Shown piece after piece: positions 260 to 16,875 of a stretch of DNA of 64,000 nt. The notes beneath the pieces were generated by a model, which was given only the letters and a program-made list of their open reading frames with translations, had not been told where the DNA came from and made no database searches. The DNA comes from an uncultured Chloroflexia bacterium (GTDB taxonomy: Bacteria; Chloroflexota; Limnocylindria; Limnocylindrales; CSP1-4): assembly GCA_963819655.1 (NCBI GenBank), contig CAWFXA010000002.1, positions 1,056,001-1,120,000 on the forward strand, written 5' to 3'. The number at the start of each line of letters is the position of its first letter. Position 1 is the stretch's first letter. The translations under genes and the position numbers were made by a program.

Positions 260-312
260 GTCGGGGCTGACAGGCCAGACCTGACGGCGTGGCCTGATCC
301 CGGAGCACGCCG

Positions 313-1200: not shown

Positions 1201-1407
1201 CCCGCCGTCATTGGTGGTGCCGCCGCGCACCGTCCCGCACGGGAGCGGGTCAGCGCCACGCGACGCGACCCGCCACCAGGGGTCAGACTAGCCAGCACTC
1301 AACGGTGGGTCGCGCGGTCCGGACGACGTCGATGACCCCAAAGACATCACGTCGTCGATCGCACCCCAGCGACCCTCCATGGACCACGCCTGGTAGGAGG
1401 AGAGTCC

Positions 1408-2691
1408 ATGCGTAGGCTGGCCATCCTGGCCGTATCCATCCTGATGCTCGCTGCCGTTCCGGCGGCATCCGCACGCACGACCGACGCGTACGACGCGCCA
1501 ACCGCGAGTGGACTGTGCGAGGCCTTCTTCGGCGTCAGCGCCGGACCGGAGCCGCTGTCCGCGTGTCAGTGGGATATGCGGTACATCAACGCCAATGCCG
1601 CCTCCCGCGCCCTCGCCACAGGCGATGGCGTGACCGTCGGCGTCATCGACAGCGGAATCGACTTCACGCACCCGGACCTCGACAACATCGACGTCGGGCT
1701 CTCGTGTTCGTTCATCAACACCGATACGCCGACCGCCGATCCAGCCGAGATCGCGAACGGCGACTGTTCGAACAAATCGGCAGTCCAGGACCTGAACGGT
1801 CATGGGACCCATGTCGCAACGACGATCGCGGGTGCGCTCGATGGCACCGGCATCGTCGGCGTGGCCCCGGACGCAACGATCGTAAGCCTCAAGGCCTGCA
1901 CGATCATCGGCTTCTGTTTCGTCGATTCGGTCGCGGCCGCGCTGCGCTATGCAGGCGACCAAGGCATCGATGTCGTCAACCTCAGCCTGTTCGCCGACCC
2001 GTACCTCTACTACTGCAGCAACGACGCGGGCCAGCGGGCGATGTACCAGGAGATGAAGAACGCGGCGAAGTACGCGCAGCAGCGCGGCACCGTCGTGGTC
2101 GCCGCGGCCGGCAACGAGCTGCACGACCTCGGTCACCCCGTGACCGACGAGATCAGCCCCGACTGGCCGCCTGACACAGCCGAGAGCCGTCGGATCCACA
2201 ACAACTGCCGCGTCGCCCCCGCAGAGCTGCCGGGCGTCGTGACGGTATCGGCCTCCGGCGTGAACACGCTGGCGGGCTACTCCAACGTCGGCAGCCCGAT
2301 CGATGTCACGGCCCCGGGCGGCGATGCCGCTCAGACGCCGGGCACGACCTTCGGTCGGATCCTGGCGGGTTGGTCCAGCACAGACGGAACCGGCTCGTGG
2401 GAGTTCTTCGCTGCCACCGGCCGAGCCGTCCTCGACGACGGCGGTCGATACGTCTGGATCAGCGGGACGTCGATGGCGTCACCGCACGCCGCGGGTGTCG
2501 CAGCGTTGATCATCGAGAACCACCCGGGCTGGAACCAGGGAGCCGTGGCGGCTGCAGTGCGGTCCACCGCGACGCCGATGGCCTGCCCGAGCCCAGCCGA
2601 TCCGAACCTCCCCCGCTGCTTTGGCGGTCGTGGCAACACGACCTTCTTCGGCGCCGGCATGGTGAACGCCCTGGCGGCCGCCTCGAAGTAA
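1408..2691 (+). CDS. Secreted S8 (subtilisin-like) serine peptidase
   Basis: Signal peptide; catalytic triad motifs VIDSGID, HGTHVA, GTSMASPH; GGAGGAG RBS. Confidence 0.93.
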   Translation: MRRLAILAVSILMLAAVPAASARTTDAYDAPTASGLCEAFFGVSAGPEPLSACQWDMRYINANAASRALATGDGVTVGVIDSGIDFTHPDLDNIDVGLSCSFINTDTPTADPAEIANGDCSNKSAVQDLNGHGTHVATTIAGALDGTGIVGVAPDATIVSLKACTIIGFCFVDSVAAALRYAGDQGIDVVNLSLFADPYLYYCSNDAGQRAMYQEMKNAAKYAQQRGTVVVAAAGNELHDLGHPVTDEISPDWPPDTAESRRIHNNCRVAPAELPGVVTVSASGVNTLAGYSNVGSPIDVTAPGGDAAQTPGTTFGRILAGWSSTDGTGSWEFFAATGRAVLDDGGRYVWISGTSMASPHAAGVAALIIENHPGWNQGAVAAAVRSTATPMACPSPADPNLPRCFGGRGNTTFFGAGMVNALAAASK

Positions 2692-2720
2692 AGACTTGTT
2701 CGCTCCGCGAACCCCAGGAA

Positions 2721-2745
2721 GGGCCGCCGGCATAGCCGGCGGCCC
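2721..2745. other. Perfect 11-bp stem hairpin between the two peptidase genes
   Basis: GGGCCGCCGGC-ATA-GCCGGCGGCCC. Confidence 0.6.
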
Positions 2746-2772
2746 AGAGCCACATGAAGTGGAGGAGGCCGT

Positions 2773-4290
2773 ATGCGCTCTCGACGGATCGCCGCGCTGT
2801 CGATCGTTCTGACGATCGGCGCGCTTGTTGCCGCGCTCGCCCCACCGGCGTTCGCCGCAGACATCAATGAATCAAAGGGCTTTCGCAAGGCGGTGACGCT
2901 CGCCGGCATCCGCGAGCATCAGGCCGCTCTCCAGGAGATCGCCGACGACAACGACGGCACACGATCGTCGGGTACGCCCGGCTATCGCGCGTCGGCCGAC
3001 TATGTCGCGGGGAAGCTCGAGGCTGCCGGTTACGACGCCACGCTCCAGCCCTTCCCGTTCGCGTTCTATCGACAGCTTGCGCCGTCGACGTTCGAGCGCG
3101 TGTCGCCGAACCCGACCACGTACACGGAAGGTGCCGGGGCCGATTACACCCCGATGACCTATTCGGGTTCCGGGAATGTGACGGCCTCGGTATCGACCGT
3201 CGCGGCGCTTGGTTGCGAGAGCGCCAACTTCGCCGGTTTCCCTGCAGGCAATATCGCGCTCATCTCACGCGGTGCCTGCACGTTCGGGATCAAGGCCGCC
3301 AATGCCCAAACCGCGGGGGCGTCCGCGGTCGTCATCTACAACAACGCCGCCGGTCCGCTCAACGGCACGCTCGGGGCGCCGAACTACACGATCCCGGTCC
3401 TTGGCACGACCCAGGCGATCGGCGTGGAGAATGCGGCCCTCGTTCCCGGGGGATTGACGTTCCACGTCATGACCTCGACCGACAGCGAGACAAGGACGAC
3501 ATGGAACGTGATCGCCGAGACCGCGTCTGGTGATCCGAACCGCGTGGTCGTCGTCGGCGCCCACCTCGACAGCGTCCTGCCGGGACCGGGCATCAACGAC
3601 AACGGGTCGGGTTCGGCGACGATCCTCGAGATCGCCGAGGTCTTCGCCGCGCAGAACCGTGTCGCCCGCAACAAGCTCCGGTTCATGTGGTACGGCGCCG
3701 AGGAGTTCAATCTCCTGGGCTCGGCGTTCTACGTGAATGGTCTGTCGGTGGCCGAGCGGGACAAGATCATGGCGATGATCAACTTCGACATGGTCGGGTC
3801 GCCCAACTATGTTCGCTTCGTCTACGACGGCGACAACTCCGCCTTCCCCGTCGGGCCAGGAGCGGCCGAGGGTCCTCCGGGCTCCGCCTACCTGGAAACG
3901 CTGTTCGTCGACTACTTCAACGCCGTTGGTCTCGCCAGCGATCCCACGCCATTCAGTGGTCGCTCCGACTACGGCCCGTTCATCGCGGTCGGTGTCCCGG
4001 CCGGCGGGCTGTTCACGGGCGCCGAAGGGATCAAGACGGCCGCCCAGGCTGCGACATACGGGGGCACGGCGGGCACGGCCTACGACCCGTGCTACCACCA
4101 GGCGTGCGATACGTACGCCAACAACAGCAACACCGGCCTCGATCAGATGTCCGATGCCGCCGCGCACGTCGCCCTGACGCTGTCACGGGTGAAGGTCGAC
4201 GTTCGCCAGACGGATGCAGTGGCCGCGCTGCGGACGTCCGGTAGCCGCGTGGCCGACGCGCCGGGTCCGGAGGAACTCCCCGACCGGTAG
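2773..4290 (+). CDS. Secreted M28 aminopeptidase with PA domain
   Basis: Signal peptide; GAHLDSV, GINDNGSGS, GAEE, NFDMVGS, YHQACD; PA domain IALISRGACTF. Confidence 0.93.
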   Translation: MRSRRIAALSIVLTIGALVAALAPPAFAADINESKGFRKAVTLAGIREHQAALQEIADDNDGTRSSGTPGYRASADYVAGKLEAAGYDATLQPFPFAFYRQLAPSTFERVSPNPTTYTEGAGADYTPMTYSGSGNVTASVSTVAALGCESANFAGFPAGNIALISRGACTFGIKAANAQTAGASAVVIYNNAAGPLNGTLGAPNYTIPVLGTTQAIGVENAALVPGGLTFHVMTSTDSETRTTWNVIAETASGDPNRVVVVGAHLDSVLPGPGINDNGSGSATILEIAEVFAAQNRVARNKLRFMWYGAEEFNLLGSAFYVNGLSVAERDKIMAMINFDMVGSPNYVRFVYDGDNSAFPVGPGAAEGPPGSAYLETLFVDYFNAVGLASDPTPFSGRSDYGPFIAVGVPAGGLFTGAEGIKTAAQAATYGGTAGTAYDPCYHQACDTYANNSNTGLDQMSDAAAHVALTLSRVKVDVRQTDAVAALRTSGSRVADAPGPEELPDR

Positions 4291-4311
4291 CCAGTCGATC
4301 AAGTCAAGTGG

Positions 4312-4347
4312 AGAGCGGGTCTGGTCCCCAGGCCCGCTCTTCGTTTC
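4312..4347 (+). terminator. Probable intrinsic terminator after the M28 gene
   Basis: Stem AGAGCGGGTCT / AGGCCCGCTCT (one G-U pair) followed by TCGTTTC. Confidence 0.6.
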
Positions 4348-4484
4348 CTCAGCGGCTCAGATGAGCCGCTTCCCGTCCAACGCGAGTCGCCTAACGACTG
4401 AACCGAAAGCAGGCTCATTCCGAGACGGCCCGCAACCTCGCCCCAGCGTAGAATCAGGGTCCCTTCGCCGAATGGAGCCCTGCC

Positions 4485-5192
4485 ATGAAGCTCTTCCTGG
4501 ACACCGCTGACATCGAAGAGATCCGCACCGTCGCCCGCTGGGGCGTGCTCGACGGTGTGACCACCAACCCGACGCTGTTCTCCAAGACCACCGGCCGGAC
4601 CTACGAGGAGGTCCTCAAGGAGATCTGCACGATCACCAGCGGCCCGGTCTCCGCGGAGGTCGTCGCCGACGAAGTCGAGGGGATGCTCACCGAAGGACGT
4701 GCGTTCGCCAAGCTCGCCCCGAACATCGTCGTCAAGGTCCCGATGAGCGTCGAAGGCCTCGAGGCGATGAGCCGCTTCGCCGAAGAGGGGATCAAGACCA
4801 ACTGCACGCTGATCTTCACCGCGAACCAAGGACTGCTCGCAGCCAAGGCCGGCGCCAGCCTGCTATCGCCGTTCGTCGGGCGCCTCGATGACATCAACCA
4901 GGACGGGATGATCGTCGTCCGCGAACTCGTGGAGATCGTCGAGCTCCATCAGCTCGAGACAGAGGTCCTCGCGGCGTCGATCCGGAACCCGGTCCACATG
5001 ACCCAGGCGGCCCTCGCAGGCGCGCACGTGGCGACGCTGCCCTTCAAGATCCTCGAGCAGATGGTCCACCACCCGCTCACCGACAAGGGCATCACCCAGT
5101 TCCGGTCGGACTGGGACAAGGCGCGCAAGGCGCTTGCCGAGAAGGCGGGAGCCGCCCAGAGCGACATCAAGCCGACCGAGGCGCGCGCCTAA
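4485..5192 (+). CDS. fsa: Fructose-6-phosphate aldolase / short transaldolase family
   Basis: MKLFLDTA, GVTTNPTL, Schiff-base VVKVP, SPFVGRLDD, LAASIR. Confidence 0.9.
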   Translation: MKLFLDTADIEEIRTVARWGVLDGVTTNPTLFSKTTGRTYEEVLKEICTITSGPVSAEVVADEVEGMLTEGRAFAKLAPNIVVKVPMSVEGLEAMSRFAEEGIKTNCTLIFTANQGLLAAKAGASLLSPFVGRLDDINQDGMIVVRELVEIVELHQLETEVLAASIRNPVHMTQAALAGAHVATLPFKILEQMVHHPLTDKGITQFRSDWDKARKALAEKAGAAQSDIKPTEARA

Positions 5193-5225
5193 CGCCTCGC
5201 TGAGGCCACCGGAGGAGGGAAGCGC

Positions 5226-7020
5226 GTGGCTGCGACGGAGGAGGTCCTCGGCCAGTTCCTCGGCGACGACACGTTCCCGGTGTCATGGGATTCGGAGGTC
5301 GAGAAGGACTTCTTCTGGGTCTACGACGACCTCCACATCCCCCATCCGGTCAGCCCGATGTTCTTCGACATCGGTGGTTGGTGGCTCAGCTGCGACCACA
5401 TGTTCCGCCGGTTCGGGACGCCGTTCGCGGTCGACTGGCTGGCCAAGAACGTCAACGGCTACGTGTACACCACGGCCATTCCAGGCCGACCCTGACGTCC
5501 GCATCGAGGGCACCGAGTACAGCTCGCGCTACCAGGCACGCGTCCCGCGAGATGACACGTTCGCCACGTCGATGGGCGCCTATCTCGACACGGTCCTACC
5601 CGTCTACGGTGAGCACTTCGCCGACTGGTGGCACGACCGGCTCGTGCCCGAGATGCAACGCAACTTCGCGTACCTCGAGGAGCGCCTCGACGCCGCCGAC
5701 GACATGTCGCTGGCCGAGACCGCGACCCTCCTCGAGGACGCGATCGACATCCACGACCGGCACTGGAAGATCCACTGGATGCTCAACTTCGCCCAGCTGT
5801 CGGCGACGCTGAAGCTGCGCGCGGTGATGGAGAAGACCCGTGGCTCGGTTGACGAGGAGCTATTGGGACGGCTCCAGAATTCGGCCTCGGACCGCAACTG
5901 GGACTCGATCGGGGCGCTCTGGCGGATGAAGAACGAGGTCCGCGACGAACCCGAGCTGCGGACGGCGTTCGAGCCCGACGACGTCGACCGGATCGCCGCA
6001 GCCCTCCGCGCGTCGGAGCGAGGCCGACGCTTCATCAGCGAACGCGTCGAGCCGTACCAGCGCGAATTCGGCTGGCACGCCGTGTGGAGCCACGAGTTCA
6101 TCTTCCCGACGGTGCGCGAAGAGATGAGGCCGGTCCTCGAGCTGATCCGCGGCTACCTCGTCAGCGACTACGACTTCCCGAGCGCGATCGAGGCGATGCG
6201 CCGGGACATCACGGCCGCCTCGCAGGAGATCCTGAGCGGACTCGCCGGGGAGGCGCTCGAGGAGATGCGGGAGTCGAACGCGGTGAACCTCCGGATGGCG
6301 CCGCTGACGCCCGATCACCACTTCTACATCGACCAGGGCGCGAACGCCCACGTCCGGCTCGTGCTCCTGGCGGTCGGCAGGAAGCTCGTCGAATCCGGAC
6401 GGCTCGATCAGCCCGACGACGTCCTGTTCCTGCGTTACAACGAGCTGCGGGCGCTCATCGGCAGCGCGGATGCGCTCGATGCCCGGACGCTCGTCTCCAC
6501 GCGGCGTGCCGAGCGCGACGCCGCTCGGGAGCTCCACCCGCGGGATTGGGTCGGCACGGTCACGCCGTCGCAGCTGGCCTTCCCATACCTCGTCAATTGG
6601 GGCTATCCGGAGCGCTTCCACCGCCAGCAGTCCGACGACGAAAGCGTGATCAGCGGCATCGCGGGCTCGCCCGGCACGATCGAGGGGATCGCGCGCGTCG
6701 TCACCACGGTCGATGAGTTCGACGAGGTGCGCGACGGCGACATCCTCGTGTGCCAGATGACGAATCCCGCGTGGGTCGTGCTGTTCACCAAGATCGCGGG
6801 GCTCGTGACCGACACCGGTGGGACGACATCGCATCCGGCCGTGCTCGCGCGGGAGTTCGGGATCCCGGCCGTCATCGGGACGTCCGTGGCGACGCGTCGG
6901 ATCAAGACCGGCGACCGTCTCCGGGTCGACGGGGGCGCCGGCCGCGTCGAGATCCTCGCCGCTGAACCCGCGGCGCCAGCCGCACCCGCACCGTCAGCGG
7001 TCGAGGCGATCGGGCGTTGA
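5226..7020 (+). CDS. PEP-utilising enzyme: substrate-binding domain plus phospho-His swivel, no ATP-grasp (phenylphosphate synthase alpha-like architecture); indel near 5485
   Basis: GTG after GGAGGAGG; N-terminal FWVYDDLHIPHPVSPM; C-terminal GGTTSHPAVLAREFGIPAV; ORFs 5226-5495 and 5134-7020 join after removing 1 nt. Confidence 0.85.
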
Positions 7021-7065
7021 GCGCGGCCCGGGACCAGGTGGATCGGGTCCGGTAGGGCCGGACCC

Positions 7066-7921
7066 ATGCGTGCGTTCGCCTACGAGCGGCCGAGCGAACT
7101 GGCCGAGGTCATCGGCCTGCTCGCCGATCAGGGACCGGACGTGCGCCTTCTCGCGGGCGGCACCGACCTCATCATCCGCATCCGGGACGGCTCGATCCAG
7201 CCGCGCACAGTGGTCGACGTCAAGGGCGTCGCCGAGCTGGAGCGGGGCATCCGGGAGGTCGACGGTCATCTCTCCATCGGGGCGCGGACCGTGATGACCG
7301 ACCTGCTGCGCGACGAGCGCATCCGGCGTGACTACGCGGCGCTGGCAGAGGCGGCCGCCGTCGTTGGAGCAGTGCAGATCAGGAACCGGGCGACCCTGGC
7401 CGGCAACATCTGCAACGCGTCCCCGGCAGCCGACACGGCGCCCGCCCTGCTCGCATTCGGCGCGCGCGTCGTCGCGGTCGGGCCCGATGGCCACCGTGTC
7501 ATCCCGCTCGACGCGTTCTTCGTGCGCTCCGGTGTCACGACGCTGGCGGCCGGCGAGCTTGTGTCCGCGATCGAGCTTCCGCTGCCGGTGACGCCGCGCG
7601 GATCTGTCCATGTCCGGCGCACGCGCCGACGAGGCCATGATCTCGCCTCGGTCACGCTGGCGTGCACGGTCGACGCCGAGGGGGTCACGCGGATCGCGTA
7701 TGGCAGCCTGGGTCCGCGGCCGCTGCTCGTCGTCGACGAGACCGGCGTCCTCGCGGATCCCGCAGCGACGGACGCGGCGCGTGAAGCACGACTCGCTGAG
7801 CTGTTCTCCGACGCGGCACCGTCGCCGACGATCGATGCGGGCGAGCCCCGAGTACCGCCTCGCGATGCTTCGGGTCCTGGGGCTGCGCGCGGTTCGCAGG
7901 ACCATCGAGCGGCTGGCATGA
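7066..7921 (+). CDS. Xanthine dehydrogenase-family FAD-binding subunit (indel near 7830)
   Basis: LAGGTDL, QIRNRATLAGNICNASPAAD; C-terminus SMRASPEYRLAML lies in another frame and ends in an ATGA overlap at 7918-7921. Confidence 0.88.
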
Positions 7922-8474
7922 CCACCCGCCGCATCGAGCTCACCGTCAACGGGCGCGCCCGAGCGGTCGACGTCCAGCCGCACCACACGCTGCTCGAGGT
8001 CCTCCGCGACGACCTCGGCCTCACGGGCACGAAAGAGTGCTGCCTGGTTGGGGAGTGCGGCGCCTGTACGGTCCTGGTCGACGATGTGAGCGTCGATTCG
8101 TGCCTGATGCTCGGCGTCGAGGCGGACGGCGCGTCGATCACGACGGTCGAAGGGCTCGCCCTCGGCGACCGGCTGCATCCGCTCCAGCAGGCATTCCTCG
8201 ACACGGGCGCGGCCCAGTGCGGCTTCTGCATCCCTGGTCAGCTCCTGTCCGCGGCCGCGTTACTGGCAGAGATCCCGCACCCGACTCGCCCCGAGATCGA
8301 GGAGGGGCTTGCCGGCAACCTGTGCCGCTGCGCTGGCTACGAGCAGATCATCGAAGCGGTTGCAGCCGCGGCCACGCCGGCGACCGAAGCGGCGCTTCGC
8401 GAGCACGCCACGCTGGGCTCCCTGCGGTCGGCGACCGCGCGTCGACGCCGGATGCGGAGCTTGCACCGCAATGA
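7918..8474 (+). CDS. Xanthine dehydrogenase-family 2x[2Fe-2S] subunit (probable indel near 8415)
   Basis: GTKECCLVGECGACTV, QCGFCIPG, GNLCRC; alternative-frame tail ends in an ATGA overlap at 8471-8474. Confidence 0.88.
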
Positions 8475-10715
8475 CGGTCGTCGGCAGCTCACCGGCGCGG
8501 GTCGGCGGGGTGGATCGCGTGACCGGCCGACAGGCGTATGTCGCCGACATCCACATCGAGGACACCCTCCACGTGAAGCTCGTGACGCTCGACGTGGCTC
8601 GCGCGCGGATCGGCTCGATCGACACGAGTGCGGCACGTGACGTCCCGGGCGTCCGCCTCGTCATGACGGCCGCGGACCTGCCCAAGCCGATGCCGCGATT
8701 CGGTCCGCAACGGCGCGACCGGCCGGTCCTCGCGGTCGACGAGACCAAGTACCACGGCGACCCCGTGGCCGCAGTGGCCGCCGACTCCCGGGATGCCGCC
8801 GAGGAGGCAGCCCGCCTCGTGCGGGTCGAGTTCGAGGAGCTGCCCGCCCTCCACACACTCGCCGCGGCGCTCGCGCCAGACGCGCCCCTTGTGCAGGATC
8901 CCGCACTGCGCCCGAACGATCCCCAGGCCGAGACCAACGTGCTCCACGAACACCGCCACAGCTGGGGCGACCTTGACGCCGCCGAACGCGAGGCGGAGAT
9001 CGTGGTCGAGGGCACGTACACGTTCCCGATGGTCACCCAGTTCGCGATCGAGCCGCACGCGTTCATGGCCGCCCCGGACGGCGATGGCATCGCCATCTGG
9101 AGCGCGATCCAGCACCCGAACTGGCTGCAGCGCGTCATCGGCGAGCTCCTAGGTCTGCCCCTCGCCAAGGTGCGCGTCCACGCGCCCGACCCGGGCGGCG
9201 CATTCGGGGGCAAGCAGCACGCGAAGTACGAGCCGCTGCTGGCGTTCATGGCGCTCGCCACCGGCCGGCCGGTCAAGCTGGTTCTATCGCTCGAGGAGAC
9301 GTTCCAGGCGGTCCGCCGTGGCGCGGCCGAGGTCCACGTCCGAACCGGTTTCCGACGCGACGGCACGCTCGTCTTCCGCGACCTCGAGGCGAACTACCTG
9401 ATCGGTGCCTACGCCGACATCGCGGACCGGACCGTGGCGAAGGGCAGCTACACCTCGATGGGTCCGTACCGCTGTCCGGCGGTCCGGATCGTCGCCCGCA
9501 GCGTGCTGTCGCACACCGTGCCGTCCACCGCGTTCCGTGGGTTCGGCAATCCCCAGCAGATCTGGGCGGTCGAGTCGAACATGAACGAGGCGGCGCGGGC
9601 GCTCGGCATCGATCCGCTTGAGCTGCGGTTGCGCAACCTGGCAGGTCCCGGCGAGACGTTCATCCCCGGCGACACGCCGGCCGATGGCGACTGGGCGGTC
9701 GCGGTGCGACGGGCGGCCGAGATGATCGGCTGGGACTCGCCGCTGCCGGCGGGTCGAGGCCGAGGTCTCGCGCTCGGCTTGAAATCGGGGCCGACCACCG
9801 GCCTGTCGTATTCGACCGTCAGGCTGCTGGTCGATGGCAGCGTCGTCGTCTACGCCGGCACGTCCGACATGGGGCAGGGCGCGCGGACGATCTTCGCCCA
9901 GATCGCCGCCGACGAGCTCGGCGCGCCGCTCGAGTGGGTGAAGGTCGTCTCGGGCGACACGGCGGTCGTGCCGTACGACCAGCAGACCTCGGCCAGTCGG
10001 TCGTCGGTGTTCATGGGGAACGCGGTGCTGCGCGCCTGCCAGGACATCCAGGCCAAGGTCCGGTCGATGGCGGCGCGGCTGGAGTCGGTCGATGCGGCGG
10101 AGGTCACCGTGGAGCGCGGCGAGGTACGAATCGGCGATCGCAGTGCTCTCGATCCGCGATGTCGTCCGGCGCGGCCTCGGTCGACTCGGTGGCGAGCTCA
10201 TCGGCGTCGGTGAGATGCGCAAGGACGCCGAGCCCGACCATCCGCTCGGCGGCACCGCGGCGTTCTACGAGTTCAACGCGACGGCGGTCGAGGTCGAGGT
10301 CGATCGCGACACCGGCGATATCACGATCCCGAGGTATGTGACGGTGTCGGACGTCGGCAAGGCGCTGAATCCGCTGCAGGTCCGCGGCCAGGACGAGGGT
10401 GCCGCGGTGATGGGACTCGGGCACACGCTGATGGAGCACTACATCTGGGACGACGAGGGCCGGATCCGGAACCTCGGCGCCATCGACTACCGGATCCCGA
10501 CGTCGATGGACCTGCCGCTCGAGATGGCGAGCGACATGGTCGAGAACGCCGACGGGCCCGGACCGTATGGCGCGAAGGGGATGAGCGAAGGGGCGCTCCT
10601 CCCGGTCGCTCCGGCCGTGGCCGCGGCGGTGCGCGACGCGACCGGTGTCTCGATCCGGGACCTGCCGTTGACGCCGGAGCGGGTCTGGCGCGCGCTCCAG
10701 GATGCCGGCGAATGA
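8471..10715 (+). CDS. Xanthine dehydrogenase-family molybdopterin-binding subunit (indel near 10142)
   Basis: GGAFGGK, AFRGFGNPQ, DMGQG, GPYGAKGMSEG, LPLTPERV. Confidence 0.9.
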
Positions 10716-12820
10716 CGCACGCATACGCGCTCGACGGGGTCCCGGCAGCGACGCTCGACGAGGCCGTCGCGCTCGTCGGCGGCAAGGCCGCGAACCTCGG
10801 CGTGATGACCCGCGAGCTCCACCTGCCGGTCCCGCCCGGGTTCGTGATCACGACGGTGACATGCCGGACGTTCCTGGCCGATGGATGGCCGGATGGTCTT
10901 GACGAAGCGGTTCGCCGGGAGATGGCCGCGGTCGAAATCGCGGTCGGGCGGCGCTTCGGCGACCCTGGCGATCCGCTGCTGGTCAGCGTGCGGTCGGGGG
11001 CGCCGGTTTCGATGCCGGGGATGATGGATACGATCCTCAATCTGGGACTCAACGACGCGACCACGCGGGGGCTGGGTGCGGTGGCCCGTGACGATGGGTT
11101 CGCCGAGGGATGCCGGGCGCGTTTCGTCGATTCCTTCCGCCTGATCGTCGGGGTCGTGGACGTGCCGGACGACCCGTGGGCCCAGCTCCGGCTTGCGATC
11201 GAGGCAGTCTTCCGTTCGTGGCACAGCGATCGGGCGCGCGCCTATCGCGAGAAGGAGGGTATCTCGCACGATCTCGGGACCGCCGTGACTGTGCAGGCGA
11301 TGGTGTTCGGCAACCGTGGCGCCGACTCGGCGACCGGCGTCGTCTTCACCCGCAACCCGGCCACCGGCGAACCGGCTCTCTACGGAGACGTGCTGTTCGA
11401 CGCCCAGGGCGAGGACGTCGTCGCCGGCACCCACCAGACCGAACCGATCGCTGTGCTCGATACGCGGCTGCCGGCAGTGGCCCGCGAGCTGCGCGCTGCC
11501 GCCGAGCGGCTCGAGCGCCACTACGCCGACCTGTGCGACATCGAGTTCACCGTCGAAGCCGGGACGCTTTGGCTGCTCCAGGTGCGGGTCGGCAAGCGTT
11601 CGCCGCAGGCGGCGCTGCGGATCGCGGTCGACATGGCGCAGGACGAGGCGTTCCCGTTGACGCGCGCGGAAGCGGTCCGGCGCGTCCTTCCGTTGCTGGC
11701 CGACCCGCCGAGGATCGCGACGGGCCGCGCCTCGGAGGCTCCCGCGCTGACGACGGGCCTTGCCGCATCACCGGGTGTGGCGAGCGGGCCGATCGCCACA
11801 GATCCGGAGGCGGCCGTGGCATCGGCAGACGCCGGCACACCGGCGATCCTTGTCCGCGCCCAGACCTCGCCCGACGACGTCCACGGCATGGCGAAGGCGG
11901 CCGGCATCCTGACGTCGCGCGGCGGGCTTGCGAGCCACGCGGCGGTGGTGGCTCGCGGCTGGGGCATCCCCGCCGTCGTCGGCGCGGAGTCGGTGGAGGT
12001 CGGTGACGGTGAGATCCGGATCGATGGGCGTGTCGTCCGCGCCGGCGATGTCATCACGATCGACGGTGGCACCGGCGAGGTCTTCGAGGGCAAGGTCGAT
12101 GGCTCGACCGTGATCGCGCCAGAGGCCGCGACGCTGCTCGCTTGGGCGCGTGAAGCTGGCGTCGACGTCGCACCGAGCGTCCGGCGCGAACCTGCGTCCC
12201 GAACACTTCCAGTAGACGCCGATCGCGTCCTGCGAGCCGTTGCCATCAAGGGCTTCGCGACGACCCAGGGGATCGCCGACGCGGTCCTCGCGACTCCCGA
12301 CGCCGTGCGACCCGTGCTCGAGGGACTTACGCGCGACGCCCTGATCGAGTTCGCCGCCGATGCCTTCAAGCTGACGCCCGCCGGCCGCGAGCGTGCCGAC
12401 GAGCTGTTGACTGCCGAGCGTGAGGCGTGGGGCGTCGACAGCGCCGCCGCAGCACTCGACGCCTTCCTCGACATCGACCATCGCGTGAAGGAGGTCGTCA
12501 CCGCCTGGCAGCTGCGCGACGACCAGACGGTCAACGACCACAGTGACCCGGCGTACGACGCCGACGTGCTCGACCGGCTCGCCGCGATCCACGCGGACGC
12601 GGTGGCCTGCCTCGAACCGAACGAACCGAAGCTCCCGCGTCTCGGCGACTACCGCGCTCGACTCACGCGCGCGCTCGAGGCCGTCCAGGCCGGCGACAGC
12701 CGGTACGTCGCCTCACCCCGCGTCGACAGCTACCACGGCACCTGGTTCGAGCTGCATGAGGATCTGATCCAGCTCGCCGGCCGAACCCGCGAGGAAGAAT
12801 CTGCCGCCGGCCGTGCATGA
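10712..12820 (+). CDS. Truncated PPDK-like protein (ATP-grasp + His swivel, no pyruvate-binding barrel) fused to a wHTH/helical C-terminal domain
   Basis: GGKAANL, VSVRSGA..SMPGMMDT, VQAMVFGN, AQGEDVVAG, GGLASHAAVVAR; C-terminal domain ends DSYHGTWFELHEDLI. Confidence 0.88.
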   Translation: MTHAYALDGVPAATLDEAVALVGGKAANLGVMTRELHLPVPPGFVITTVTCRTFLADGWPDGLDEAVRREMAAVEIAVGRRFGDPGDPLLVSVRSGAPVSMPGMMDTILNLGLNDATTRGLGAVARDDGFAEGCRARFVDSFRLIVGVVDVPDDPWAQLRLAIEAVFRSWHSDRARAYREKEGISHDLGTAVTVQAMVFGNRGADSATGVVFTRNPATGEPALYGDVLFDAQGEDVVAGTHQTEPIAVLDTRLPAVARELRAAAERLERHYADLCDIEFTVEAGTLWLLQVRVGKRSPQAALRIAVDMAQDEAFPLTRAEAVRRVLPLLADPPRIATGRASEAPALTTGLAASPGVASGPIATDPEAAVASADAGTPAILVRAQTSPDDVHGMAKAAGILTSRGGLASHAAVVARGWGIPAVVGAESVEVGDGEIRIDGRVVRAGDVITIDGGTGEVFEGKVDGSTVIAPEAATLLAWAREAGVDVAPSVRREPASRTLPVDADRVLRAVAIKGFATTQGIADAVLATPDAVRPVLEGLTRDALIEFAADAFKLTPAGRERADELLTAEREAWGVDSAAAALDAFLDIDHRVKEVVTAWQLRDDQTVNDHSDPAYDADVLDRLAAIHADAVACLEPNEPKLPRLGDYRARLTRALEAVQAGDSRYVASPRVDSYHGTWFELHEDLIQLAGRTREEESAAGRA

Positions 12821-12853
12821 ATGGAGGGAGACGCCCGGCCTAGCATTGTGGCC

Positions 12854-13180
12854 ATGACTCCCTCGCCCGCCCGACCGGTCATCACCGATGCGACCGCGCG
12901 CGAGCGCTATGAGGCCCACGTCGACGGCGAGCTCGCGGGCGTTCTCGAGTACATCGTCAAACGCGGCCGGATCGCCCTCATCCACACGGAGGTGCTGCCC
13001 GACCACGAGGGCCAGGGCGTGGGGTCCGCACTGGTCCGCTTCGCGCTCGAGGACGCCCGCCGACGCGAGCTGCGGGTCATCGCGACCTGTCCATACGTTC
13101 AGGCCTATCTGTCACGCCACCCCGAGGACGACGACATCGTCGTCGGTCGGTCCGCCCCGTCGCCTGACTCGGTGTCCTGA
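12854..13180 (+). CDS. Small GNAT N-acetyltransferase (YjdJ-like)
   Basis: HTEVLPDHEGQGVGSALVR...IATCPYV. Confidence 0.85.
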   Translation: MTPSPARPVITDATARERYEAHVDGELAGVLEYIVKRGRIALIHTEVLPDHEGQGVGSALVRFALEDARRRELRVIATCPYVQAYLSRHPEDDDIVVGRSAPSPDSVS

Positions 13181-13236
13181 AAACGACAGCGTCCTGCAAC
13201 CTTGGGCACAGGGTGTCGGCGGGGAGGCGGCCACCA

Positions 13237-13335
13237 GTCGCGGTCGCTAACGGCCTCCCGCTCTACACGTGCAACCCGGGCGACTTCGCCGGCATCGACG
13301 ACTTGACCATCCGAGCGGTTCCTGCTGCCGATTGA
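13237..13335 (+). pseudogene. 3' remnant of a VapC-like PIN toxin gene
   Basis: Translates VAVANGLPLYTCNPGDFAGIDDLTIRAVPAAD*, resembling the PIN C-terminal motif; no start codon or N-terminal part. Confidence 0.6.
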
Positions 13336-13395
13336 TGGCCCAGACCGGAGCTCTCTGGTGCGCTCTCGTTCGATCGAGGCAGGTAAACGGCGTCC

Positions 13396-14283
13396 TCAGC
13401 TGCCCTGCTCGTATCCCGTGGCCGTGAGCTTGTCCCAGAGCGTGCCGGCGTTCTTGGTCTGGATGTGATCCATCATGTAGCCCTGTCCGACGTCGACCGG
13501 GCCGAAGACGTCATCGAACCGGATCCGCTCGACGGTCTCCTGGCGCGTCCAGCCCTTGGCCACGGCGTCGGCGACCGCGGCCTTCCACGCCAGTAGCACC
13601 GCCCGTTGCCGATCCACGGCTTCTAGCGTCGTCACCGGCCCGTGGCCCGGGACGAGGCGATCGACGTCCAGTTGCCGGATCCGCTCCAGTGCCTCCAGCC
13701 ATTGGTCGACGTTCGAGGTCATCAGCCAGGTCTGGACCTGATTGAAGATCGTGTCGCCGGTGAACACGACCCGCTCCTCCGGGATATGGACCGCTAGCTG
13801 GCCGGGCGTATGCCCCGGCGTCCACAGGCAGTGGAACGTATGGTCGCCGACGCGTAGCGTGAGGTCCCCGGTGAACACGATCGTCCCCTTGTTCGGGTCC
13901 TCGTAGTAGACCTCGCGGTCCGGGATGAGCGGAGCGGCGTCGGGGTCGTCGGTCGGGATCGCCTCGAGCGCGTACGCGAACGGATCGAGCTCGGCGTTCG
14001 GATCCATGAAGTTGTCGTACAACCCCTGGTTCATGACGACCTCGACGCCCTTGAACCAGTAGTTGCCGAAGATGTGGTCGACGTGGTGCTCGGTGTTGAT
14101 GAGGTAGCGGATCGGGCCGTGGAGCTCGGCCTTGGCGCGCATCGCGACCGCGCGAGTCGGGAGCTGGGGCGTGTCGACCACGACGACGCCGTCCGACGTC
14201 ACGACGAAGCTGGGGTTGCAGCCGCGCAGCTTGGTCGTGGTGAAGACGTTCGGAGTCACCTGCTCCATGTCGATGGTGGTCAT
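13396..14283 (-). CDS. MBL-fold metallo-hydrolase (cyclase-like)
   Basis: NTEHHVDHIFGN, PGHTPG, FTGD, VPGHG; ATGA overlap with the SDR. Confidence 0.88.
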   Translation of the reverse strand: MTTIDMEQVTPNVFTTTKLRGCNPSFVVTSDGVVVVDTPQLPTRAVAMRAKAELHGPIRYLINTEHHVDHIFGNYWFKGVEVVMNQGLYDNFMDPNAELDPFAYALEAIPTDDPDAAPLIPDREVYYEDPNKGTIVFTGDLTLRVGDHTFHCLWTPGHTPGQLAVHIPEERVVFTGDTIFNQVQTWLMTSNVDQWLEALERIRQLDVDRLVPGHGPVTTLEAVDRQRAVLLAWKAAVADAVAKGWTRQETVERIRFDDVFGPVDVGQGYMMDHIQTKNAGTLWDKLTATGYEQGS

Positions 14284-15065
14284 TGCGTGGCTGTCAGCCC
14301 GCCATCGATGCCGAGCACCTGCCCGGTCACGAATGACGCGGCGTCCGACACGAGGAAGATCGCTGGTCCGACGATGTCGCTCGTTTCGCCGACGCGGCCC
14401 AGCGGGATTCGGCCGACGATGCCGGCCTTGAACACCGGGTCCTCGAGCAGCGTCGCGACCTGGGGCGTGTCGACGAAGGTCGGCATGATCGCGTTGACCC
14501 GGATGCCGTGCTTCGCCCACTCGGTCGCCCATTGGCGAGTCAGCGACGAGATCGCGCCCTTCGCGGCGACGTAGGCCGAGTAGCCCGCGTTGATCCCAAG
14601 GTTGGCGCGGACCGACGAGATGTTCAGGATCCTGCCGCCCTCGCCCTGTTCGATCATGGCGCGCGCGACGGGCTGGGTCGCCACTAGCGTGCTCCGGACG
14701 TTGAGCTCCATGATCCAGTCCCATGCGTCGCGCGGGTAGGCCTCCGCGGGGTGGAGCACCTTGCCGGCGCCGCCGCCGACCGCGTTGACCAGGATGTCGA
14801 TGCGGCCGAAGCGATCGATCGTCTCGTCGACCATCCGCTCGGCGTCGGCCTCGTTCGTCGCGTCACCCGTGACGGCGAGACCCTTGGAGCCGGCTGATTC
14901 GACCCGTTCCACCGCGGCCCGGAGCGGCTCGGCGTTCCGACCCGCCACCGCGACGAGGGCTCCGGCCTGCGCCAGGGCCTCGGCGATGGGCGCCCCGATG
15001 CCGCCCCCGCCGCCCGGGATCAGGGCGACCCGGCCCTGCAGGCTGAACATGTCGAGTTGGGCCAT
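14280..15065 (-). CDS. SDR oxidoreductase (gluconate 5-dehydrogenase/KduD-like)
   Basis: GGGGGIG, YVAAK, FVTGQVLGIDGG. Confidence 0.88.
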   Translation of the reverse strand: MAQLDMFSLQGRVALIPGGGGGIGAPIAEALAQAGALVAVAGRNAEPLRAAVERVESAGSKGLAVTGDATNEADAERMVDETIDRFGRIDILVNAVGGGAGKVLHPAEAYPRDAWDWIMELNVRSTLVATQPVARAMIEQGEGGRILNISSVRANLGINAGYSAYVAAKGAISSLTRQWATEWAKHGIRVNAIMPTFVDTPQVATLLEDPVFKAGIVGRIPLGRVGETSDIVGPAIFLVSDAASFVTGQVLGIDGGLTATQ

Positions 15066-15170
15066 GCGGCCTCCTTCCGAAGTTCGAGCGTAGTGGCGCC
15101 CCCATCGTCGCGTCAAAACGCGAGTCCGGGCGTGCGGCCCCGTCGGCAGGCTCGGCGTACGATCGCGTTG

Positions 15171-15887
15171 ATGTCCGTCGCGGCCCCATCGATCGGGATC
15201 CTTCGAGAGCGGCATCTGCACGCGTCCTTGAAACGGTGGTATGCGGAGCCCGGCGACCAGGTCGAGGTGGTCGTCGACGGGTACGTCGTGGATCTTCTCC
15301 GAGGCGAGCTGCTCATCGAGATCCAGACGCGTGGATTTGCCGGGATGCGGCCGAAGGTCCTCGCGCTGCTTGGGGCCGGCCACCAGATCCGGGTCGTCCA
15401 TCCGATCGCGGTCGACCGGTGGATCGTGCAGGTGGATGACGATGGGCAATTCCTCGGCCGCCGGCGCTCGCCGCGCCACGGCGATCTCGTCGACCTGGCC
15501 GCGGAGTTGGTGACCTTTCCGGAGCTCCTCGACGATCCCGGGTTCGAGATCGAGGTGCTGCTGACCCGAGAGGAGGAGGTCCGGCGCCACGACCCCAGGC
15601 GGTGCTGGCGTCGCCGCGGCTGGACCGTGGTCGAGCGCCGCCTGATCGAGGTGCTGGATCGGATCACCCTGGCGCGGCCTGGCGACCTCACGCGCTGGCT
15701 CCCCGAGACGCTTTCGGAGCCGTTCACGACGGCCGAGCTGGCCGTCGCGCTCCATCGGCCCCGACGCACCGCGCAGCAGATGACCTACTGCCTGCGTCGG
15801 CTCGGCCTCATCGAGGCGATCGGCACGCGGGACCGCTCGGCCGCGTATCGCCTCGTCCCACGGGAGGCTCCGGGCGACGTACTATAG
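15171..15887 (+). CDS. Hypothetical protein, possible PD-(D/E)XK nuclease fold with C-terminal HTH
   Basis: H..LK...E..VDGYVVD.....IEIQT pattern; C-terminal FTTAELAVAL...AQQMTYCLR. Confidence 0.6.
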   Translation: MSVAAPSIGILRERHLHASLKRWYAEPGDQVEVVVDGYVVDLLRGELLIEIQTRGFAGMRPKVLALLGAGHQIRVVHPIAVDRWIVQVDDDGQFLGRRRSPRHGDLVDLAAELVTFPELLDDPGFEIEVLLTREEEVRRHDPRRCWRRRGWTVVERRLIEVLDRITLARPGDLTRWLPETLSEPFTTAELAVALHRPRRTAQQMTYCLRRLGLIEAIGTRDRSAAYRLVPREAPGDVL

Positions 15888-15939
15888 AAAACCATTACCG
15901 CCCACGTTCTGAACGACTGACGTCACCACGGAGAGGGGC

Positions 15940-16875
15940 ATGGCGCTGAACCTCGACGGGCTCATCCCGGCCACCGTCCTGCCGATGCATGGCGACGGGA
16001 GCATCGACGAACCCGCCCTCAGGACGTATATCGCCTGGGTCGTCGAACAGGGGCCGGTCGCTCTGGCGATCAACGTCGACACCGGCGAGGGACCGCATCT
16101 CACCCACGACGAGAAGGTCCGCATCATCCAGATCGTCCGCAACGTCACGGACACCCCCATCGTGGCCGGGCTGGCCGGCCCATCGACGGACGCGGCCGTC
16201 CGCCAGGCCCGCGACTTCCAGGCCGCCGGCGCCGACGCGCTCCTCGTCTTCCCGATCCCGGCCTACCTGAGCCAGCCGCTCGATCCGCGGATCCCGGTCG
16301 CCTATCACAGGGCGATCGCGGAGGTCGGGCTGCCGCTCATCCTCTTCCAGCTGCAACCCGCCCTCGCGGGCGTGAACTACGAGGCCGACGTCCTCGAGGC
16401 GATGGCCCTGGTCGATGGCGTCGTCGCGATCAAGGAGGCGTCCTTCGACGCACGCCGGTTCGTCGATACCGCCCGGCTGCTCGAGCAGCTCCCGAAGAAG
16501 ATCACCCTCCTCACCGGCAACGACAACTTCATCCTCGAGTCGTTCCTGCTGGGCGCGACCGGCGCCCTCATCGGTTTCGGCGCGGTCATGACCCGTGAGC
16601 AGGTCGACATGATCCGCGCGTGGCAGGAAGGTCGGACCGACGAAGCGATGGCGCTCGGCAGACGCGTCCAGCGGCTGGCCGACGTCGTGTTCGCTGCGCC
16701 GGTCGGCGACTATCGGGTCCGGCTCAAGGAGTGCCTGCGCATCCTCGGCGTGCTCGAGTTCGCGACCGTCCGGCAGCCGCTCCTGCCGATCTCCGACGCC
16801 GAGCGCGAGCACCTCACGGCCGTCCTGAAGGAGGTCGGCCTGCTCGCGCCGACCAACGCCCCCGCGCTCGTCTGA
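15940..16875 (+). CDS. DHDPS/N-acetylneuraminate lyase family aldolase/dehydratase
   Basis: GLIPATVLP...GSIDE, DTGEG, AIKEAS Schiff-base Lys, LTGND. Confidence 0.88.
   Translation: MALNLDGLIPATVLPMHGDGSIDEPALRTYIAWVVEQGPVALAINVDTGEGPHLTHDEKVRIIQIVRNVTDTPIVAGLAGPSTDAAVRQARDFQAAGADALLVFPIPAYLSQPLDPRIPVAYHRAIAEVGLPLILFQLQPALAGVNYEADVLEAMALVDGVVAIKEASFDARRFVDTARLLEQLPKKITLLTGNDNFILESFLLGATGALIGFGAVMTREQVDMIRAWQEGRTDEAMALGRRVQRLADVVFAAPVGDYRVRLKECLRILGVLEFATVRQPLLPISDAEREHLTAVLKEVGLLAPTNAPALV

Follow-up and report, generated by a model that had tools for sequence, protein, structure and literature searches.

At positions 4485–12820 of the window, the whole 64,000-nucleotide stretch of DNA from an uncultured Chloroflexia bacterium that we analysed, the plus strand carries a gene cluster that combines two dikinase-like proteins with a three-subunit, XDH-family molybdenum (Mo) enzyme. 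This locus may well be a copy of a conserved catabolic module in which a two-component dikinase adds a phosphate to a hydroxy-(hetero)aromatic compound and the Mo hydroxylase serves the same pathway. We give this reading, which takes the frame changes in this copy to be assembly errors, about an even chance of being correct. The link between the PpsA-like dikinase component and the XDH-family enzyme is strongly conserved. The pairing of a dikinase with a Mo hydroxylase is not new in kind, as Ensifer adhaerens HP1 provides a precedent by genetics. The cluster and its surroundings contain the following features:

4485–5192, plus strand: fsa/talC-type transaldolase family gene, 235 aa, intact (Pfam TAL_FSA, 203 bits)
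5226–7020, plus strand: PpsA/HpeH-like gene, with an N-terminal and RIF-binding-like substrate region and a C-terminal phospho-His swivel (Pfam PF00391)
7021–7065: spacer of 45 nt
7066–7921, plus strand: FAD-binding (CoxM/CutM-like) subunit (FAD_binding_5)
7918–8474, plus strand: two-[2Fe-2S] small subunit (Fer2, Fer2_2)
8471–10715, plus strand: molybdopterin-binding large subunit (Ald_Xan_dh_C, MoCoBD_1, MoCoBD_2, spread over two frames)
10712–12820, plus strand: PpdK-like ATP module, 702 aa, intact (Pfam PPDK_N and PEP-utilizers)
12161–12817, plus strand: C-terminal domain of the PpdK-like protein, with a winged-helix-like start followed by a helical bundle
12821–13180, plus strand: small GNAT acetyltransferase (Pfam Acetyltransf_CG, 90.5 bits)
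13396–14283, minus strand: MBL-fold hydrolase (Pfam and NCBIfam), convergent to the cluster
14280–15092, minus strand: SDR (Pfam and NCBIfam), convergent to the cluster

ATGA stop/start overlaps occur at 7918–7921, 8471–8474 and 10712–10715; they serve as gene junctions only if the frame shifts described below are read through. A scan of positions 4200–13500 for terminator-like sites found none on the plus strand and a single one on the minus strand, where 1.8 were expected in the scan, and no Rfam family was found in positions 1–20000. An earlier note on this DNA had described one same-strand unit with three such overlaps and no clear terminator. The sequence and the terminator scan agree with that description, as does Pfam with its gene order and domain calls. 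What the note missed are four changes of reading frame and two cluster genes that are absent here. Pfam and NCBIfam identify the scanned genes between 313 and 15092 as peptidases, fsa, the cluster itself and the GNAT, MBL and SDR genes. A phosphatase dedicated to the cluster is not evident in the window.

GTG 5226 is the start codon of the PpsA-like gene and is preceded by the ribosome-binding site GGAGGAGG. The only Pfam match of the encoded protein is the C-terminal PEP-utilizers mobile domain (PF00391), its swivel motif reads TDTGGTTSH, and it contains no ATP-grasp. In NCBIfam, the protein aligns to PRK08296 and to the C-terminal two-thirds of RedH/PigC/RPH, all under cut-off (124 bits against 999 for the RPH equivalog), and also to the C-terminal two-thirds of the PRK06241 model. 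Its best match in the PDB is RPH (5FBS, 100 bits, residues 395–595). Unlike the window protein, RPH (PDB 5FBS, 5HV1) is a single chain with its own ATP-grasp. Previous work on HpeHI, CreHI and PpsAB describes an H component with a RIF-binding-like domain and a C-terminal swivel (T/SxxGGxxxH), an ATP-grasp on a separate component, and a proposed route from ATP via His to a phenolic OH (J Biol Chem 2025, PMC12167813). The PpsA-like protein has the domain and swivel motif of such an H component and a separate ATP-grasp component encoded nearby; its gene is frameshifted in this assembly.

This second component, the PpdK-like protein, combines an ATP-grasp with a His swivel of its own (GGLASH) and a further domain at the C-terminus, and has no PEP/pyruvate barrel. 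Residue H409 is invariant among 11 orthologues. The protein belongs to the truncated PpdK family NF004531/PRK05878 (499.9 bits against a cut-off of 456, profile positions 24–506 of 534), a name that stands for an annotation and not for a tested function. It is not a true pyruvate, phosphate dikinase: TIGR01828 gives 509.1 bits against a cut-off of 843.45, there is no PEP-utilizers_C match, and PPDKs in the PDB align to residues 143–482 only. The proposal of a split dikinase, with substrate domain and swivel on one protein and ATP-grasp and swivel on the other, therefore holds. What the window protein has beyond the NF004531 family is a 210-aa winged-helix and helical domain. This domain matches nothing in Pfam or NCBIfam, and its predicted model (pLDDT 85.4) retrieved no PDB structure with Foldseek at E ≤ 0.001; beyond that threshold, the matches were nothing but weak winged-helix regulators. 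Its alignment contains the invariant motifs VTAWQ.R, NDH.D..YD and ASPRVDSYH..WFELHE. A counterpart exists as a stand-alone 206-aa protein on a Diaphorobacter plasmid, and the domain is 40.5% identical to the open reading frame at 11046–11597 of the compared locus L043. The two phospho-His domains had been thought to set this system apart from Pps and Cre systems. Against this view, the homologue on Rhodococcus opacus pROB02 (50% identity) also combines PPDK_N with PEP-utilizers, in a cluster that we take to be Cre-like by its gene content. HpeI and PpsB are described as ATP-grasp only (PMC12167813); the window module differs from HpeI in its swivel and extra domain.

Of 301 sampled Chloroflexota genomes, 24 have PpsA-like orthologues. 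XDH subunits lie beside the gene in 17 of the 18 Chloroflexota neighbourhoods that were fetched, the lone exception (L081) being a 4.8-kb contig that ends just past the ATP-grasp gene. In a species-wide scan, 20 loci from five phyla (Chloroflexota, Actinomycetota, Acidobacteriota, Pseudomonadota and Bacillota) reached at least 39% identity; XDH subunits are present in 17 of these orthologous loci, and an ATP-grasp partner likewise in 17. Among more distant PpsA-like homologues, the corresponding count for XDH subunits is 7 of 60. Conservation across five phyla supports the initial idea that the dikinase halves and the Mo enzyme belong together. In the PpsA-like tree, the 25 orthologue rows, 22 of which adjoin XDH genes, group into a single clade (SH-aLRT 100), and the swivel motif with its His is found in 24 of the 25 members (the L102 row gave no match). 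This clade is separate from the other sampled PpsA-like clades, in a tree that contains no named HpeH, CreH or PpsA sequences. The Mo-subunit tree places 24 cluster Mo subunits on one side, apart from the 3hpd-type rows. Since this tree is small, with three paralogues and six 3hpd-type rows as outgroups, we can say that the Mo subunits of the clade may be a single lineage.

Two other loci lend support to the module. One relative (G016) has a paralogous second cluster, rearranged but with all parts kept. A cultured organism, Thermomicrobium roseum DSM 5159, carries the set on a megaplasmid (NC_011961.1, 56–70 kb). Its PpsA-like orthologue (48.5% identity) is encoded beside XDH-family Mo, FeS and FAD subunits, an ATP-grasp protein and a GntR regulator, and its proteins fall into the same clades as the window proteins on both trees. 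Unlike the window module, the T. roseum ATP module is ATP-grasp only. This cluster also includes cyclase, FAH-family, Abm and ABC-transporter genes; a PEPCK/HprK-fold gene was not detected in it.

The closest functional precedent comes from E. adhaerens HP1, where genetics showed that the Mo hydroxylase HpdA does not convert 3-hydroxypyridine to 2,5-dihydroxypyridine without orf9 ("pyruvate-phosphate dikinase") and orf10 ("PEP-utilizing protein mobile subunit") (Wang et al. 2020, bioRxiv 10.1101/2020.01.08.898148). According to this preprint, HpdA gave zero conversion when a heterologous Ensifer strain lacked orf9 and orf10, a phosphorylated intermediate was not detected, and HpdA3, a separate SRPBCC/CoxG subunit, is essential in HP1. 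The earlier note had proposed a new pathway, and this precedent speaks against that claim. Like the 3hpd cluster, the window cluster has XDH-family FAD, FeS and Mo genes beside genes for a PpsA-like His-swivel protein and an ATP-grasp protein. A 3hpd-type locus in Pusillimonas caeni (L139) encodes PpsA-like, PPDK_N-only, FAD, CoxG, FeS and Mo proteins. The window PpsA-like protein is only 26% identical to its P. caeni counterpart and falls into a different clade, and the Mo subunit is 29% identical and lies on the opposite side of the tree. Judged through these P. caeni proteins, identities and trees do not make the window proteins orthologues of Orf10 and HpdA1. In contrast to the PPDK_N-only ATP module of 3hpd, the window module has its own swivel and extra domain. 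Where 3hpd has a separate CoxG/SRPBCC subunit, no gene of the gene-filled span 4485–13180 has a CoxG/SRPBCC match in Pfam. The 3hpd cluster is linked to the maleamate genes hpdBCDE, and Pfam and NCBIfam found none of these among the genes scanned at 313–15092. The 3hpd cluster also encodes a GntR regulator, as do most relatives of the window cluster; the window genome lacks this cluster gene. By these comparisons, the window clade is distinct from the 3hpd clade. The substrate of the window system is probably a compound other than 3-hydroxypyridine.

How such a module may work can be sketched by analogy with HpeHI and RPH. ATP would be bound by the ATP-grasp of the PpdK-like protein, and the phosphoryl group would move to a swivel histidine. 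The swivel His of the PpsA-like protein would pass it on to the hydroxyl of a small hydroxy-aromatic or hydroxy-N-heteroaromatic compound held in the RIF-binding-like domain. The Mo enzyme, equipped with FAD, two [2Fe-2S] clusters and Mo-pterin, would hydroxylate the same compound or its phosphate ester, a step for which the dependence of HpdA on Orf9 and Orf10 is the precedent. On chemical grounds, O-phosphorylation would turn an electron-donating OH into an electron-withdrawing group, favouring nucleophilic Mo-OH attack on the ring. A more far-reaching version, which we consider tentative and rather doubtful, is that a dedicated Mo hydroxylase lineage in at least five phyla depends on the PpsA-like clade and its ATP-grasp partner as an obligate, ATP-driven priming module. 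If so, O-phosphorylation would be a general and so far unrecognised activation of hydroxy-(hetero)aromatic rings for Mo-dependent hydroxylation, and the priming machine would include two more uncharacterised parts, the PEPCK/HprK-fold protein and the winged-helix/helical domain.

Four genes of the cluster (PpsA-like, FAD, FeS and Mo) are not single open frames in this assembly, with one change each. The PpsA-like gene runs in frame 0 from GTG 5226 and moves to frame 1 at about 5479–5485, a +1 change that corresponds to one extra base relative to eight relatives. The FAD gene opens in frame 1 at position 7066 and closes at 7921 in frame 2, where its conserved tail MRASPEYRLAML is encoded; this +1 change places an extra base near 7828. 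As assembled, the FAD frame continues into the FeS gene as one 524-aa open reading frame. The FeS gene is read in frame 1 from 7918 until the change at about 8410–8428, after which frame 0 encodes its conserved tail and stop (8474); the tail GDRASTPDAELAPQ and stop (ending LAPQ) match the ends of two orthologues (L013 and L019). The Mo gene switches from frame 2 at its start (8471) to frame 0 at its end (10715) by a +1 change at about 10141–10146. A search for sequencing runs that hold the source strain across the shifted sites found none.

Most likely, the four frame changes are indels of a long-read assembly, and because of this the real genes are probably intact. The alternative that the cluster copy is a decaying, non-functional remnant, with real frameshifts that arose after or alongside gene loss, is one that we consider rather unlikely. 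The changes are denser in the cluster (four in 5.5 kb) than elsewhere (about one per 10 kb; Poisson P of about 0.003 by our own post hoc arithmetic), while fsa, the PpdK-like gene, pyrG and two downstream genes are free of them, and the shifted FAD frame stays open into the FeS gene. Against decay, frame changes in the cluster follow assembly type: they occur in five of the six other few-contig relatives (G001, G007, G015, G016 and G017, but not G005) and in none of the four many-contig relatives (G006, G008, G009 and G013). The background in this genome (G000) also counts against decay. Among 76 other genes (99,249 aligned nt) we counted ten frame changes in seven genes, three of which are hit twice. 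A share of about 9% is too high for biology, and the shifts cluster elsewhere too. Furthermore, apart from the indels the proteins are 69–82% identical to intact orthologues, with high GC3.

The gene loss concerns the 45-nt spacer. In most relatives, this position is occupied by about 1.6 kb encoding a GntR/FCD regulator and a 298-aa PEPCK/HprK-fold P-loop protein. Both genes are really absent from the genome, as tblastn searches of the whole genome with the two proteins reached E-values of 0.052 and 0.081 at best. Together with the excess of frame changes, their absence from the entire 3.49-Mb assembly fits decay as well as error. Since G006 and G007 each miss one of the two, their presence is variable within the genus, which also argues against decay.

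In anaerobic phenol degradation, several steps separate the action of phenylphosphate synthase from that of 4-hydroxybenzoyl-CoA reductase. In a similar manner, the kinase pair and the Mo enzyme could share a pathway without mechanistic coupling, with the kinase acting on another intermediate such as the hydroxylated product. We regard this as unlikely. The neighbours vary among cluster types (cyclase, FAH-family, Abm, ADH, ALDH and histidine-phosphatase genes); such variety hints at catabolism in several steps and would suit an uncoupled kinase. Two-component dikinases are also described as opening several phenol pathways without any Mo enzyme, with HpeHI, CreHI and PpsAB feeding P450, carboxylase or other routes and not a Mo hydroxylase (PMC12167813). 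Yet, the 3hpd Mo enzyme did not convert its substrate in the heterologous host without orf9 and orf10, and the tight, ancient co-inheritance of one PpsA-like clade with perhaps one Mo lineage suggests more than common regulation.

The type of Mo chemistry bears on a further alternative, a reductive dehydroxylase of the 4-hydroxybenzoyl-CoA reductase (4-HBCR) type; dehydroxylation had been listed in the earlier note as an option. The kinase would make an aryl phosphate with the phosphate as leaving group, and the Mo enzyme would remove the oxygen function. 4-HBCR (1RM6) and quinoline 2-oxidoreductase (1T3Q) share the three-subunit layout of the window enzyme, and among solved structures 4-HBCR alpha (1RM6_A) comes closest to the Mo subunit with 332 bits, ahead of quinoline oxidoreductase (1T3Q_B) with 262. 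The best NCBIfam match of an intact Mo orthologue is XdhA (NF043082, 434.7 bits), closely followed by 4-HBCR alpha (TIGR03194, 431.5 bits), but both scores are far below their cut-offs of 780 and 994.55. The FAD subunit points away from dehydroxylation. In 4-HBCR, an insert in the HcrB subunit carries a [4Fe-4S] cluster. An intact orthologue of the window FAD subunit (290 aa) has no FeS insert: it aligns over its full length to CutM and CoxM (287–288 aa) and only over residues 4–118 to HcrB, so the HcrB-type insert is absent. The window FAD subunit contains just two Cys, and Pfam and NCBIfam found no ferredoxin or CoA ligase gene in the window cluster. A dehydroxylase is therefore improbable.

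Swivel domains phosphorylate proteins in PTS enzyme I, and a kinase pair that targets the Mo enzyme or its cofactor, for example activating it by protein or cofactor phosphorylation, would be in line with an HpdA that is inactive without orf9 and orf10 and with an undetected phosphorylated intermediate, but we find this very improbable, as the PpsA-like protein retains the RIF-binding-like small-molecule domain of RPH and HpeH. The description of the two-component dikinase subfamily in PMC12167813 also knows no member that phosphorylates a protein.

The fsa gene, which had been placed at the head of the cluster, is probably a housekeeping neighbour outside the system. It belongs to the NCBIfam equivalog TIGR00875 (fructose-6-phosphate aldolase/TalC; 285.3 bits against a cut-off of 245.95), and its distance to the cluster in relatives varies from 34 nt to 5.4 kb. 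In a small-genome sister family, fsa is the sole part of the query that is matched, in 12 of 12 genomes, and in other genera no close homologue was found within about 9 kb of the cluster. At the other end, the ATG of the GNAT gene directly abuts the PpdK-like stop (junction ATGAATGG). This gene was not seen downstream in one relative (G005), and in locus L012 the next gene at the corresponding position is the MBL homologue. The MBL and SDR homologue families are each present in 6 of 41 compared loci, and are thus recurrent neighbours of the cluster in some genomes. The MBL family includes one Oscillospiraceae locus.

The genome that carries the window (3.49 Mb, 69% GC, three contigs, estimated completeness 91%) encodes a kinase pair around the three subunits of an XDH-family Mo hydroxylase. 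By the names of its close protein matches it belongs to Chloroflexota, near Candidatus Limnocylindrales / CSP1-4. The PpsA-like half of this pair contains a substrate region and a His swivel without ATP-grasp; the PpdK-like half is the ATP-grasp partner.

Genes of the locus and sites of frame changes (window positions)
313-1200, between pyrG and fsa, open reading frame without a Pfam hit
1408-2691, between pyrG and fsa, subtilase S8 gene
2773-4290, between pyrG and fsa, PA-domain M28 peptidase gene with a signal-like N-terminus
4485-5192, + strand, fsa
5226-7020, + strand, PpsA-like gene; extra base at about 5479-5485
7066-7921, + strand, FAD subunit gene of the XDH-family enzyme; extra base near 7828
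7918-8474, + strand, FeS subunit gene of the XDH-family enzyme; -1 in the gene tail at about 8410-8428
8471-10715, + strand, Mo subunit gene of the XDH-family enzyme; +1 at about 10141-10146
10712-12820, + strand, PpdK-like gene (702 aa)
12821-13180, + strand, small GNAT gene

The domains named in the earlier note were recovered as the same Pfam domains. The ATGA overlaps at 7918, 8471 and 10712 are present in the sequence, and a scan of the + strand (4200-13500) gave no terminator-like site. Window positions 1-20000 matched no riboswitch or other Rfam family, and no sigma-70-like promoter was found. The 45-nt spacer 7021-7065 has an inverted repeat rich in GC (CCGGGACC...GGTCCGG) and no T-run. 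Elsewhere in this genome there are four more three-subunit XDH-family loci (C2:78303-81800, C2:1482277-1485858, C3:183659-187155 and C3:208717-212520), none with a PpsA-like gene, and a separate PPDK paralogue (C2:1712819-1714360).

XDH-family Mo hydroxylases are thought to require just water and an electron acceptor. A preprint describes an exception in the 3-hydroxypyridine (3hpd) cluster of Ensifer adhaerens HP1, where HpdA1-4 converts 3-hydroxypyridine to 2,5-dihydroxypyridine only in the presence of orf9, a "pyruvate-phosphate dikinase", and orf10, a "PEP-utilizing protein mobile subunit"; a GntR gene adjoins these genes, and the authors call the role of orf9/orf10 unknown (Wang et al., bioRxiv 2020). 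The pairing that the earlier note had proposed as a new pathway is thus known from 3hpd genetics. Our literature search found a link between a PEP-utilising protein and a Mo hydroxylase only in this preprint, and no Ensifer 3hpd record in the plasmid collection matched at the thresholds used. The locus of Pusillimonas caeni, one of the species listed by Wang et al., contains PpsA-like (612 aa), PPDK_N-only, FAD, CoxG, FeS and Mo genes. By contrast, the ATP-grasp partner in the window lineage has its own swivel and a C-terminal domain. The window locus shares the pairing with 3hpd and belongs to a distinct and widespread lineage of kinase-linked Mo hydroxylases that has its own accessory parts.

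PpsA-like orthologues occur patchily, in 24 of 301 sampled Chloroflexota genomes. XDH-family subunits stand beside the PpsA-like gene in 17 of the 18 fetched Chloroflexota neighbourhoods; the remaining one is a 4.8-kb contig that stops at this point. Scanning a single genome from each species gave 80 loci. Those with at least 39% identity span Chloroflexota, Actinomycetota, Acidobacteriota, Pseudomonadota and Bacillota; XDH subunits and an ATP-grasp partner were each found in 17/20, compared to XDH subunits in only 7/60 of the more distant homologues. The pairing read from the window by the earlier note is correct, and in this lineage the kinase is tightly linked to the Mo enzyme. This second lineage with the kinase/Mo hydroxylase pairing is much more widespread than the 3-hydroxypyridine system, and its comparison highlights two conserved accessory parts. 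From this conservation, and by analogy with the 3hpd genetics, we infer that the kinase pair would be mechanistically coupled to the Mo enzyme.

Phylogenies were built for both partners. In the tree of PpsA-like proteins (92 loci submitted, 60 of them covering at least 80% of the protein) the orthologues group in a single clade with SH-aLRT 100, and 22 of its 25 rows lie beside XDH genes; the label "XDH nearby" requires at least 4-5 changes overall. The tree of 33 Mo subunits, with small outgroup sampling, places the 24 clade-linked subunits on one side, where the only other sequence to join them is a paralogue on a long branch, at an unresolved node. Subunits of the 3hpd type fall in another part of the tree, together with two unlinked paralogues from the window genome. 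On this small tree, kinase and Mo enzyme may have been inherited together.

Two layouts recur. Type A, that of the window lineage, runs PpsA-like, GntR, PEPCK/HprK-fold, FAD, FeS, Mo, sometimes cyclase or ADH, then PpdK-like. Type B, found in Thermogemmatispora-like and other genomes, runs PpsA-like, GntR, cyclase, an ATP-grasp-only protein, FAD, Mo and FeS. A set resembling type B is present on the megaplasmid of the cultured Thermomicrobium roseum; its presence there makes the role of ATP for a Mo hydroxylase testable in tractable material. Cyclase (arylformamidase-like), FAH-family and Abm genes are recurrent in type-B clusters. Eight type-B loci (L077-L080, L084-L086 and L099) also contain a gene of the histidine phosphatase superfamily, whose product could remove the phosphate added by the kinase. 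One relative, G016, has two paralogous whole clusters (loci L013 on G016:C5 and L021 on G016:C1) with PpsA-like proteins that are 63% identical; in the second copy the PpdK-like gene has shifted about 4.5 kb away, to the opposite strand.

As to the chemistry, the Mo subunit scores below all NCBIfam equivalog cut-offs (XdhA 435 vs 780; 4-HBCR alpha 431 vs 995), and the closest matches among solved structures are 4-hydroxybenzoyl-CoA reductase alpha at 332 bits, followed by quinoline oxidoreductase at 262 bits. The FAD subunit has the length of CoxM/CutM, and its alignment to HcrB is restricted to the part before the position of the HcrB FeS insert. These features favour an ordinary oxidative hydroxylase as more likely than a reductive dehydroxylase.

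PMC12167813 (JBC 2025) defines two-component small-molecule dikinases (HpeHI, CreHI, PpsAB) in which the H part joins a RIF-binding-like domain to a swivel whose His is essential, and the I part is an ATP-grasp protein; no stable complex was observed. The PpdK-like protein scores above the cut-off of NCBIfam PRK05878, a truncated PpdK family. A Rhodococcus opacus pROB02 protein with which it shares 50% identity likewise combines PPDK_N with PEP-utilizers, and the second His domain is therefore not the distinguishing feature it was held to be. The neighbours of this homologue are P450, ferredoxin, reductase, ADH, ALDH, PEP-utilising and phosphatase genes, a layout that is presumably Cre-like. 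The extra C-terminal domain of the PpdK-like protein (window 12161-12817) occurs as a separate 206-aa protein in a Diaphorobacter plasmid. In its model (pLDDT 85) a helical bundle comes after a winged helix; Foldseek against the PDB gave no match at E <= 0.001, and protein-atlas matches scored 0.87, a lead only. The invariant His/Asp-rich motifs NDH.D..YD and ASPRVDSYH..WFELHE could bind a metal or ligand. Complex prediction for this domain with the PpsA-like protein gave an uninformative 0.01 against a mark of 0.32.

Most relatives have two genes between the PpsA-like gene and the FAD gene, one for a GntR/FCD regulator and one for a protein of 298 aa; the window has only 45 nt at this place. 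No copy of either turned up across the whole assembly (best E-values, 0.052 and 0.081), and their loss from this genome is real. One of the two genes is also missing from relative G006, and one from relative G007. Pfam and NCBIfam gave no match to the 298-aa protein. Since Foldseek relates its model (pLDDT 89) to ATP-dependent PEP carboxykinases (E 2e-8) and HPr kinase (E 2e-4), it is predicted to adopt a P-loop PEPCK/HprK fold. It is kept beside the PpsA-like gene in Limnocylindrales-like genomes (for example, L012 8788-9684, - strand), and it also occurs at one Anaerolineae and two Bacillota loci. PSRP, the regulator of PEP synthase, served as the model for a role in swivel regulation through a Thr two residues before the His. 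This idea was rejected: the position is T, V, L or A within the clade and is uncorrelated with the presence of the PEPCK/HprK-fold gene.

The genes described in the earlier note are real, yet four frame changes had been overlooked. ORF lists, three-frame translations and a GC3 frame plot revealed one change in each of four cluster genes, with sites placed by alignment with relatives; the conserved end of the FeS protein (...LAPQ*), for instance, lies in a different frame from its body. Unbroken are fsa, the PpdK-like gene, the upstream pyrG and two downstream genes. For the background rate, 400 kb of relative G005 supplied 165 long ORFs, 76 of them with a good orthologue in the window genome (99,249 aligned nt). 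Ten frame changes fall in seven of these genes, three of which carry two each (examples at C2:1273993-1275985, C2:1261338-1262212 and C2:1042032-1044136). The assembly thus has a frame change roughly every 10 kb of conserved coding sequence; its gene calls will be fragmented. The Mo gene of the C2:78303-81800 locus is likewise split into two matches.

Frame changes inside the cluster also occur in five of the six other few-contig relatives (G001, G007, G015, G016 and G017; not G005) and in none of the four many-contig relatives (G006, G008, G009 and G013). This pattern indicates long-read indels, and the four changes are probably assembly errors. Real decay of the cluster would account for four shifts in 5.5 kb, an excess over background (Poisson P about 0.003, computed post hoc), but the dependence on assembly type makes decay rather unlikely. 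A programmed +1 frameshift at CCC-TGA of the PpsA-like gene was discarded, as homology puts the change upstream of CCC-TGA and no comparable signal exists at the other three sites. No public sequencing run contained over 12% of the sampled words, and none of the runs listed as containing them was from RNA. Contigs from four soil/rhizosphere runs gave short pieces of related organisms only: two lack one base at 5479, the state of the relatives, and none spans the other three sites for this strain. For users of the assembly, the practical message is that probable indels break genes in the window.

Finally, fsa does not appear to head the cluster as had been supposed. The gene scores above the NCBIfam FSA/TalC equivalog cut-off and is the sole query part found in 12/12 genomes of a small-genome sister family. 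Within the genus its distance upstream of the cluster varies from 34 nt to 5.4 kb; in other genera a search out to about 9 kb gave no close homologue. It is most simply a housekeeping transaldolase. One caveat to this bystander reading is a very divergent TAL-family gene, distinct from fsa, that adjoins the PpsA-like gene in 12 type-A loci (for example, L070 11236-12327, + strand; L072 5613-6845, - strand). It matches Pfam TAL_FSA and, with 108-117 bits vs a cut-off of 367, falls far below every NCBIfam transaldolase cut-off. Its homologue in the window genome (56% identity) lies on another contig, at C3:312865-313944. The pyrG gene ends near 226 in the window, separated from fsa by three genes (313-4290); in relative G005 these three genes are absent and pyrG lies about 450 nt from fsa.
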